DNA from: Puniceicoccales bacterium | GTDB lineage: Bacteria > Verrucomicrobiota > Verrucomicrobiia > Opitutales > JAIRLG01 | Direction: 5' to 3' | Assembly: GCA_031288595.1 (NCBI GenBank) | Contig: JAITRB010000013.1 | Span: 1-32,000 of the forward strand | Length of the DNA stretch: 32,000 bases | Part shown: piece by piece, positions 30,001 through 32,000 of the stretch | Layout: each line of letters opens with the position of its first letter | Position numbering within the stretch: the first letter of the stretch is position 1 | Position numbers: made by a program

Positions 30001-32000
30001 GTCGAATCGATGTAAAATCCTGTACACACTCGGCGTTTCTTTTCATCAGCTCCAGGTCTGGACGTAAGAAAGCAAGCGGAGCCCCAGCGAGTTCGAAGGA
30101 TCTTGAAAGCCCGCAATAACAGCGGGGAAGATGCATTCACTTTGATTGTCCCCACTGATTCGTGCGTGGAATCGTTCCTCCTGACGGACAAGAATTAGCT
30201 TCCGAGGTAACGGAGGCCGCCTCTCAAAGTTCTGAAGGAAAGACACCGCTGGACATTACCGGACATTCCGTCAGAAAAAATAGTTGGCATTCGACTCAAG
30301 CTGGCATAAGTCGGAGGGATTAGCCCCTAAATGTAGGGCATCAAAAAGGGTGAGGGATAAGGGATGCAGGCACCAGAATGGGACTACGGAAGCAGACGAG
30401 GAATCGGACTAGAGCCAGGGCTAAAGCTAGAATTAGAGGGGATTTTGCTCAGGTATTCGATCCATGGCCACCTATAACGCTAGGGCAGCGGTCCCTGAGG
30501 CTAAATTCCTTCCAGTCATTCATTCTTTCCTCTCATTTCCAATTCGTTTTCGGGGCTGGCTTTGTCCGAAGGGCAAGGACAGCTGTCCTTGCCCTTCGGA
30601 CGGCCCGCATCGCGGGCCCGATTTCTTTGAAATCGAAAGCCAGCCCCAAATAACCCTTTCCCCCTCTCACGAAGATCGCCATTTACAAGAACACACTGGA
30701 CAGACGCTGGGCATCCCTATACTCCACGAGAGCCGCGCAGCCTATGGTTTCCGTCCTGCTCAGCATCCTCCTCTTCGAGGCATCTATTTTCATCCACGAA
30801 CTGGGCCATTACCTAGCGGCCAGGCGGCAGGGGCTATTCATCCCGAGATTCTCCATCGGCTTCGGGCCCAAGCTCTTCTCTTGGAAATTTCGGGGAACGG
30901 AATTCTGCCTTTCGCTCCTGCCGCTGGGAGGCTATGTCGCCCTGCCCCAACTCGCTGAACTCGAGGCCCTTGAAGGCAGCTATGGCATCCCCGATACCTG
31001 CAAACAGCAGCTGAGTGCCTGGGATAGGTGTTTTGTGGCACTGATGGGGCCGCTGTTCAACCTCCTTTTGGCGTTATTCGTGGCTTCGGTGTTATGGATC
31101 CACGGCACACCAGGCCTCCCCGAAGATTCTTCACGGGCTATTGGCTACATTCTCCCCCATCTTCCGACTCCTCTCGGCGACATCCCCAACCCCAATCTAG
31201 GGACAGGACTGCAATTGGGCGATGTCATTCTGTCCGTCGATGGGCAAGCGGTCTCCTGCTTCGAAGCCATCCAACAGGCCATCGGGATTGGTTCCGGGCA
31301 CGATGATCAGGGACAGGCGACGGTGGACTTGGAAGTGCGACGTGGCGACGCGATTCTCCCGCTCACGCTCCATCCCGTCAAAATCTGCCCATTCGCTAGC
31401 CGCTCGGACAGTCTCCGCAGTCTCGGAATCGCCCCGACCTCTTCCCTGAAGATCACGGCCATCGTGCCGGACTCCCCTGCTGCCAAGGCCGGATTACAGA
31501 GAGGAGATCAGCTTCTGGCCGTCGATGGGCAGACGCTCTACTCACTCCAACACCTGCAGGACTACATTCAGGGAGTGCCTTCGGACATTCAGCTCTCCGT
31601 GAGGCGACGAGGGGAAGAGATTTCCCTCCCCGCCGCGCTGACCGATGTTCCCATCAGCAAGGCCTACTGGAAGCTCGAAGATTCCCGGGGCGAAGAAATC
31701 TTCTGCCTCATCCCGCGTGACTCATTTTCCTCGCTGAATTCAAAGGGAATCGAGGGCCGTTTCGAAATCGGGTTTTCGGCGGAGCAGCATTCTCCCTCTC
31801 CCCTGGCCGCCGGTGATGGACTCATCCTACCGGCGAATTTGGCCGTTTTTTCCGACTTGGGCGAATGGCTATCCCGCGACAGGCCCTCTTCGCTCCGCTT
31901 TCAGAAATCCGATGGCAGTGTTTATGAATACCCGCTGGGGAATTATAGATTCCAGAGTATAGCGGCGACGACGATTCGCCGGCTGGGCATCGAATGCGCG

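Follow-up and report, generated by a model that had tools for sequence, protein, structure and literature searches.

Four-way-junction repeats restricted to one clade of Puniceicoccales and their likeness to REP, REPIN and MITE sequences

Repetitive extragenic palindromic (REP) sequences, REP doublets forming hairpins (REPINs) and miniature inverted-repeat transposable elements (MITEs) help to shape the genomes of bacteria and are readily taken for regulatory RNAs. REPINs are hairpin-forming doublets in which compensatory changes are common and for which an alternative 'clover' fold has been described, and it has been argued that REP sequence evolution is driven by selection rather than drift, with the REPIN as the unit selected (PMC3116915). 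Here we examine a family of short folded repeats represented in a 32,000-nt stretch of DNA from a Puniceicoccales bacterium (contig JAITRB010000013.1 of assembly GCA_031288595.1, positions 1 to 32,000; hereafter the window). An original prediction made from this sequence had described two copies, A and B, of a four-helix element in the tRNA-Leu/comEC and gspE/rseP regions, and had singled out a compensatory base-pair change between them. The best description of the elements is a new, clade-restricted family of linker-free four-way-junction repeats, and we lean, with moderate confidence, towards reading A, B and a third copy, C, as lineage-specific structured repetitive or mobile DNA of a REP/REPIN/MITE-like kind with a putative folded single-strand intermediate. 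The compensatory change between A and B is genuine and typical of the family and is no proof of an RNA regulator of tRNA-Leu/comEC or gspE/rseP; the practical warning is that compensatory changes between two copies do not by themselves prove an RNA function.

Like the REPs, REPINs and bacterial interspersed mosaic elements (BIMEs) of proteobacteria, the elements are short, abundant, extragenic palindromic repeats that occur in either orientation, with several subfamilies coexisting per genome. Hairpin folding in single-stranded DNA (ssDNA) or mRNA, compensatory changes and the published 'clover' fold are further points of likeness (PMC3116915). As high-copy, extragenic, hairpin-forming palindromes the elements can be placed with REPs and REPINs; they differ in lacking a GTAG-type conserved head sequence, in consisting of a closing stem (P1) and three different, mutually unrelated hairpins (H1, H2 and H3) rather than two inverted REPs, and in residing in a verrucomicrobial lineage, where no REP-associated tyrosine transposase (RAYT) was found in the ~330 kb examined. 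With MITEs such as the Correia elements of Neisseria, ERIC, RUP and bcr1 they share a length of ~100 bp, a non-coding and intergenic nature, terminal inverted repeats (P1 can be read as repeats of 12-16 bp), multiplication within a lineage and presence/absence polymorphism between relatives. They have the size and the terminal repeats of a MITE, whereas target-site duplications are not seen, the interior consists of three perfect covarying hairpins, and one subfamily is itself the cargo of another, IS5-like MITE. We know of no autonomous insertion sequence (IS) related to the elements and having the same ends.

Two systems outside bacteria are also comparable. The inverted terminal repeat (ITR) of adeno-associated virus is an outer palindrome around small GC-rich internal palindromes with 3-nt loops. 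The family resembles it in this enclosing design and in loops that take both complementary 'flip/flop' forms, and the likeness is structural only: the ITR has a T-shaped, three-way form and terminates a linear single-stranded genome, whereas the elements here have four helices, a chromosomal intergenic location and neither a Rep gene nor a terminal position. The GC clusters of yeast mitochondria, which PMC4478555 treats as mobile DNA, are likewise GC-rich palindromic elements dispersed in intergenic DNA. They are much shorter single hairpins of an organelle genome, with no four-way junction. Keyword-based literature searches returned no specific description of elements like those reported here. 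The family is unusual in its linker-free four-way junction, very clean covariation, strand-symmetric pairing and stems conserved at orthologous loci, and suits the question of whether such repeats are kept up by selection on an ssDNA intermediate, by a host function or by both.

Copy A, delimited from its sequence and from RNA and DNA folding, lies on the plus strand at 25193..25292. Its outer stem P1 (GGGGCCGGCTTT, 25193-25204, with AAAGCCGGCCCC, 25281-25292; lengthened by TTTT/AAA flanks to about 25189-25295) encloses H1 (25205-25221, CGATGCC-TTC-GGCATCG), H2 (25222-25238, GGCCCGC-GCA-GCGGGCC) and an AT-rich H3 of 42 nt with one A/C mismatch (25239-25280). Copy B, at 30552..30647, is in inverted orientation on the minus strand, as established by repeat comparison, folding and the orthologous copies in two fetched loci, L122 and L110. 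In plus-strand coordinates its P1 is GGGGCTGGCTTT (30552-30563) with AAAGCCAGCCCC (30636-30647), and the hairpins are H3 (30564-30601, a 38-nt perfect palindrome), H2 (30602-30618) and H1 (30619-30635). In each copy the closing stem surrounds the three hairpins with zero unpaired junction nucleotides, giving a perfect four-way (4H) junction that is Holliday-junction-like. The RNA minimum free energies (MFEs) of the two strands are -79.7 (z -10.2) and -82.8 kcal/mol for A and -81.7 and -85.5 kcal/mol for B, with z-scores of -10 to -12.5 over both copies and none of 200 shuffles folding as well. DNA parameters gave the same fold with equal significance (copy A: MFE -51.1, z -10.3). Copy C, absent from the original prediction, was found by BLAST of the window against the fetched loci, which gave matches at three places in L085, and was confirmed by its fold (z = -7.9) and a structural scan. 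It represents a variant subfamily on the plus strand at 22376..22477, with P1 GGCCGCCTTT/AAAGGCGGCC, H1 GAGCCC-TTC-GGGCTC, H2 GCTCGC-TGC-GCGAGC and a long AT-rich H3; its H2 stem, GCTCGC/GCGAGC, is a compensatory variant of GCCCGC/GCGGGC.

The sequences quoted in the original prediction are present at A and B as given, and the two are copies of one structured element, both of them perfect four-way junctions. The exchange at outer-stem position 6, C-G in A and T-A in B, holds, as does the identity of the H2 stem (GGCCCGC/GCGGGCC). The helix-by-helix comparison was nevertheless made in the wrong register, since B is inverted relative to A; this follows from a repeat search in the window, in which A 25190-25239 is 80% complementary to B 30601-30650. 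The proposal that H1 of A had been replaced in B by a 38-nt palindrome was an artefact of the missed inversion: the palindrome is the counterpart of the 42-nt H3 of A, and CGATTTCTTTGAAATCG of B is the counterpart of CGATGCCTTCGGCATCG (H1) of A. Read in their common orientation, both copies consist of P1-5' GGGGCYGGCTTT, a 17-nt H1 (CGATnnn-nnn-nnnATCG), a 17-nt H2 (GGCCCGC-nnn-GCGGGCC), a long H3 of 42 nt (A) or 38 nt (B) and P1-3' AAAGCCRGCCCC, and this one helix order, with the short H1 before H2 and the long H3 after it, recurs in all related copies. In the correct register H1 contributes two more compensatory pairs, G-C to U-A and C-G to U-A (GCC/GGC versus TTC/GAA). The flanks of A and B had also been described as similar; they are indeed alike, with a T-run 5' and an A-run 3'; they extend the palindrome outwards and are therefore alike on either strand.

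Covariation was assessed in 31 complete family-I copies over P1, H1, H2 and the outer 10 nt of each H3 arm, joined to P1; the search pattern fixed H2 and the 3' base of H1 and left P1, the top of H1 and H3 free. Standard pairs fill 98.6% of 1116 cells, compared with 88.7% in shuffles, and pairing collapses to 34-53% when partner columns are slid by 1-3 positions. Fifteen pairs have changed on both sides, and 0/500 shuffles attain any of the observed measures. At the pair flagged from A and B, 20 copies have U-A, 11 have C-G and none is mismatched, and the check on aligned copies that the original prediction had proposed therefore came out in its favour. Two pairs of H1 behave similarly (U-A 17 and G-C 14; C-G 22 and U-A 9), covariation extends to nine of the ten H3 pairs, and the outermost P1 pairs vary compensatorily in some copies (e.g. 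CTGG...CCAG and CCTG...CAGG). The sequences of H2 and of the inner part of P1 are strongly conserved across subfamilies.

A scan of a genome collection with ATCGGGCCCGCNNNGCGGGCCG gave at least 112 loci. Among the matches listed, ~35 loci came from a single metagenome-assembled genome, Puniceicoccales bacterium Pcl387_bin38 (JAITKE01), and one from Ct408_bin121 (JAIRRP01), while the others were unrelated GC-rich hairpins. About 40 or more copies of the same architecture are present in JAITKE01, with others in JAIRRP01 and L122. A sequence-free structural scan, which required a stem of at least 9/10 bp, two short hairpins side by side and a third one and in which overlapping matches were merged, gave 68 matches in ~220 kb of Puniceicoccales DNA, of which ~60 could be recognised as belonging to the family; in other bacterial and viral loci there were only sporadic matches, none of family type. 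Elements are 72-110 bp long with P1 arms of 12 bp (~16 including the T/A runs), and fall into several sequence families with a common inner P1 (...GCyGkCTTT / AAAGmCrGC...) and H2 (GCCCGC-nnn-GCGGGC). No element was present in 57 kb from more distant relatives (GspE identity <=65%, GC 39-43%). A pattern scan of a metagenome collection gave a single match, a false positive in a coding region, and a scan of viral contigs gave eight matches to a loose pattern, where structural scans showed no family-type element. Searched against Rfam at the gathering threshold, the whole window contains only tmRNA and tRNA matches; under permissive settings the best scores at the A and B loci were 19 bits (P33, gathering 45) and 18 bits (Archaea_SRP, gathering 96.5).

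Several properties of the family bear on whether the pairing is that of RNA or DNA. Deviations from Watson-Crick pairing are rare and symmetric, with 17 G·U and 11 A·C (p = 0.34), and the small excess of G·U is no evidence of RNA because the selection criteria admitted G·U and not A·C, tilting the counts towards G·U. The MFEs of the two strands of 52 elements differ by a mean of 0.5 kcal/mol (Wilcoxon p = 0.41). GNA or the complementary TNC makes up 46 of the 62 H1 and H2 loops of family I, and one and the same position can carry either form (H1: TNC 15, GNA 5; H2: TNC 14, GNA 12). C-GNA-G triloops are exceptionally stable in DNA minihairpins. Such flipping of loops is what a DNA palindrome should show and not what selection on an RNA loop should produce. 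Apart from the 5' T-run and 3' A-run, the flanks are unconserved between copies, so there is no promoter or terminator common to them. Evidence against a strand-specific RNA comes from near-pure Watson-Crick pairing, strand symmetry, loop flips and apparent freedom of orientation and context, together with a subfamily inside an IS5-like MITE and sites that hold a copy in one related genome and lack it in another. For the same symmetry of pairing between strands, the suggestion that the element is part of a 5' untranslated region or a small-RNA gene is not favoured. An intrinsic terminator was considered and rejected, the T-run being 5' and the A-run 3' of the fold on both strands and hence on the wrong sides; consensus scans for terminators and promoters were not above shuffles, and the sole terminator match within an element is H2 of B.

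Comparison with other Puniceicoccales assemblies, in which the GspE gene beside B has homologues at 92, 81, 75 and <=65% identity, shows that orthologous sites differ in whether they hold a copy. The window, L122 and L110 (JAITKE) have copy B, and L123 (JAITIW01) and L125 lack it; a copy adjacent to tRNA-Gln is common to L110 and L125 and missing in L123; and the comEC/tRNA-Leu interval of L125 carries a subfamily other than that of copy A. Where the copy is retained, its stems are too. The three orthologues of B have 0-1 substitutions in 84 stem nucleotides and one compensated indel (GGG/CCC to GGGG/CCCC), and differ at 5-7 of 10 loop nucleotides; identity is 72% in their 3' flank and 74% at the least-conserved codon position of rseP. 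The L110/L125 pair beside tRNA-Gln has at least one compensatory substitution, along with some decay.

Signs of mobility come from repeats that carry or contain one another. One family-I subfamily, in at least 10 copies, always lies inside a longer repeat with GAGGGTGTCGTCAAAT inverted ends and CTAG termini. By these ends and termini the longer repeat is an IS5-like MITE, with which the subfamily hitch-hikes. MITE-borne copies of this subfamily 1 occur at L047, L056, L057, L059, L098, L036, L113 and L085, and in JAITKE01 and JAIRRP01 there is a composite form, repeated at least 10 times, of a solo left end, a four-way junction and a full MITE. The same MITE also occurs without a junction element (L125 15876-16025 and about 15330-15487). 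In L055 (1600-1800) one family-I copy is nested in hairpin H2 of another; the nested copy is flanked by GGCCCGCGGAGC...GCTCCGCGGGCC, an inverted and not a direct duplication of the H2 sequence, and no simple insertion with defined ends could be made out there.

The original prediction placed both copies in divergent promoter regions. This is true of A, which lies between a minus-strand tRNA-Leu(CAA) gene on its left (25020..25106, its 5' end 87 nt from A) and a plus-strand gene of the ComEC competence family on its right (25469..27199; an ORF, with Pfam PF03772 on the identical gene in L121). For B, which is beside a GspE/PilB-type ATPase gene (28773..29948, minus strand, PF00437), the setting is only apparently divergent. 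The seemingly empty ~800 bp between gspE and rseP (29949-30550) is a decayed plus-strand ankyrin-repeat gene, identified at 30025..30476 by tblastn with the L122 Ank protein (two fragments, 45-47% identity, E 3e-21 and 5e-6) and by gene maps of L122, L123 and L125, in which the gene is intact (343-452 aa). Because this plus-strand remnant lies to the left of B, the region is not truly divergent; B follows closely on the 3' side of the ank pseudogene and comes before a conserved pre-rseP motif. That motif, GAACACACTGGACAG (30689..30703, plus strand, by alignment), lies ~45 nt upstream of the rseP ATG (30744) and is conserved, as is rseP, in five of five relatives with or without copy B, including L123 and L125. 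Positions 30689-30723 contain TGGACA, a 15-nt spacer and TATACT, resembling a sigma-70 promoter with a short spacer, and GAACACACTGGACAG may be part of the rseP promoter. Copy C lies between the convergent ORFs 21491-21868 (plus) and 22578-23150 (minus).

A tie of the element to divergent promoters, or a role in regulating its neighbours, finds no support in the family as a whole. Copies occupy divergent, convergent and co-directional intergenic sites in both orientations, with a distribution roughly proportional to background, although crude ORF calls in GC-rich DNA make this analysis of gene context noisy; pairs of copies around ordinary genes and presence or absence at orthologous sites also speak against such regulation. 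Near-identical copies flank single genes for enolase, a glycosyltransferase, a pseudopilin-like protein and a DUF4143 ATPase. We considered whether such pairs were the ends of an IS and rejected this, since the DNA between them encodes these ordinary proteins. Neighbouring copies resemble each other more than distant ones do, and same-orientation, near-identical pairs around one gene are seen at L049 (1138-1220 and 2953-3035), L098 (2845-2929 and 4030-4114), L110 (5219-5301 and 6620-6700) and L111 (5458-5550 and 6523-6616). This pattern suggests local duplication of, or conversion between, nearby copies.

If the elements are structured repetitive or mobile DNA, the family would have multiplied in the intergenic space of one Puniceicoccales subclade and diversified into sequence subfamilies while retaining its fold. 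The base-pairing constraint would act on a folded single strand, most likely ssDNA exposed in copying or mobilisation. A putative structure-specific enzyme would recognise the fold and only foldable copies would propagate, which would give rise to the pervasive compensatory changes, among them the C-G/T-A exchange between A and B. A number of observations weigh against this account. Target-site duplications were not seen (the 15-nt flanks of 31 family-I copies lack a direct repeat, tending instead towards complementarity of a T-run and an A-run), no transposase gene adjoins the elements, and in a phmmer search with E. coli RayT against all ORFs in the ~330 kb, a fraction of a genome that gives low power, the best match had an E of 2. 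Nor is there any direct sign of copies being excised or inserted. Moreover, orthologous stems with 0-1 substitutions in 84 nt, set against ~27% divergence in flank and wobble sites, are not how purely selfish, decaying copies should look. Comparison of the orthologues indicates that retained copies are under constraint at their locus, a pattern that leaves room for a host function. It is possible, and we suggest it tentatively, that the elements are an undescribed class of functional four-way-junction nucleic acid under locus-level purifying selection, whether a REPIN-like replicator with a putative junction-recognising enzyme or an ssDNA/RNA signal used by the host.

The same constraint also speaks for a host-selected, cis-acting RNA in neighbouring transcripts, which like some REPs would protect 3' ends, be a site of processing or insulate transcripts. 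At ~-80 kcal/mol the junction could serve in this way and, being near-palindromic, in either orientation; at orthologous sites loops and flanks diverge and stems stay intact, with compensatory substitutions and one compensated indel, B comes just after the ank (pseudo)gene on its 3' side and before the rseP motif, C has convergent genes on its two sides, and three of ~60 copies are within ~200 nt of a tRNA gene. We nevertheless consider this explanation rather doubtful. G·U pairs are tolerated in far greater numbers by natural structured RNAs, whereas here they amount to just 1.5% of pairs and A·C mismatches are about as frequent; loops switch between complementary forms; there is no bias of orientation relative to genes, with many copies, A included, in divergent regions; and the placement of the T- and A-runs leaves no intrinsic terminator. 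That the element is a small-RNA gene in its own right, or belongs to a known class of riboswitch or ribozyme, is very improbable. The highly significant fold speaks for it, but no Rfam family is matched at gathering or permissive thresholds, the unconserved flanks offer no common promoter or terminator, and each genome carries dozens of copies, in both orientations.

A palindrome may also reflect the symmetry of DNA itself, as in a double-stranded or cruciform site for a nucleoid-organising protein, gyrase or a junction-binding protein, and such protein-binding roles have been proposed for BIME/REP clusters. Watson-Crick pairing on both strands, independence of orientation and the strong conservation of H2 and inner P1 across subfamilies are in keeping with a site of this kind. 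In contrast, H3 and parts of H1 and P1 vary freely in sequence while complementarity is kept, which argues for pairing within a strand and not for a duplex site recognised by its sequence. A branched cruciform is in general kinetically hard to extrude from duplex DNA, and no candidate protein is known; a duplex or cruciform site therefore seems to us improbable.

Two additional small four-way-junction families, with sequences unrelated to the main family, were encountered in the fetched loci. One, of ~73 nt (L036 4456-4528, L039 3345-3417, L111 4712-4784 and L122 696-766), is built as GGCCCCGGGA / AGCCCTC-GAA / AAGCGGC-TAAA / GCTCGC-GAA. The other, of ~82-102 nt (L067 3986-4068, L082 5354-5455, L098 6518-6598 and L118 7436-7517), is built as CCGGCGATCC / CAAAAC-TTTTAA / CGCTGCGC-TCC / GGCGCTGGGCC. 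Elsewhere in the window, three tandem 150-nt repeats that are 91-95% identical (3239-3688) lie in an ORF at 2420-3787 and form a 50-residue protein repeat, and a minus-strand ORF at 10929-12908 contains diverged internal repeats (11628-12527; 83-91% identical, spacings of 123, 417-420 and 543 nt). A tmRNA is found at 4322-4715 (129.7 bits), for which ARAGORN gives the tag peptide AESSSCRFERVGDLPVHG, without the usual hydrophobic ...LAA-type tail; this peptide may reflect a miscalled reading frame.
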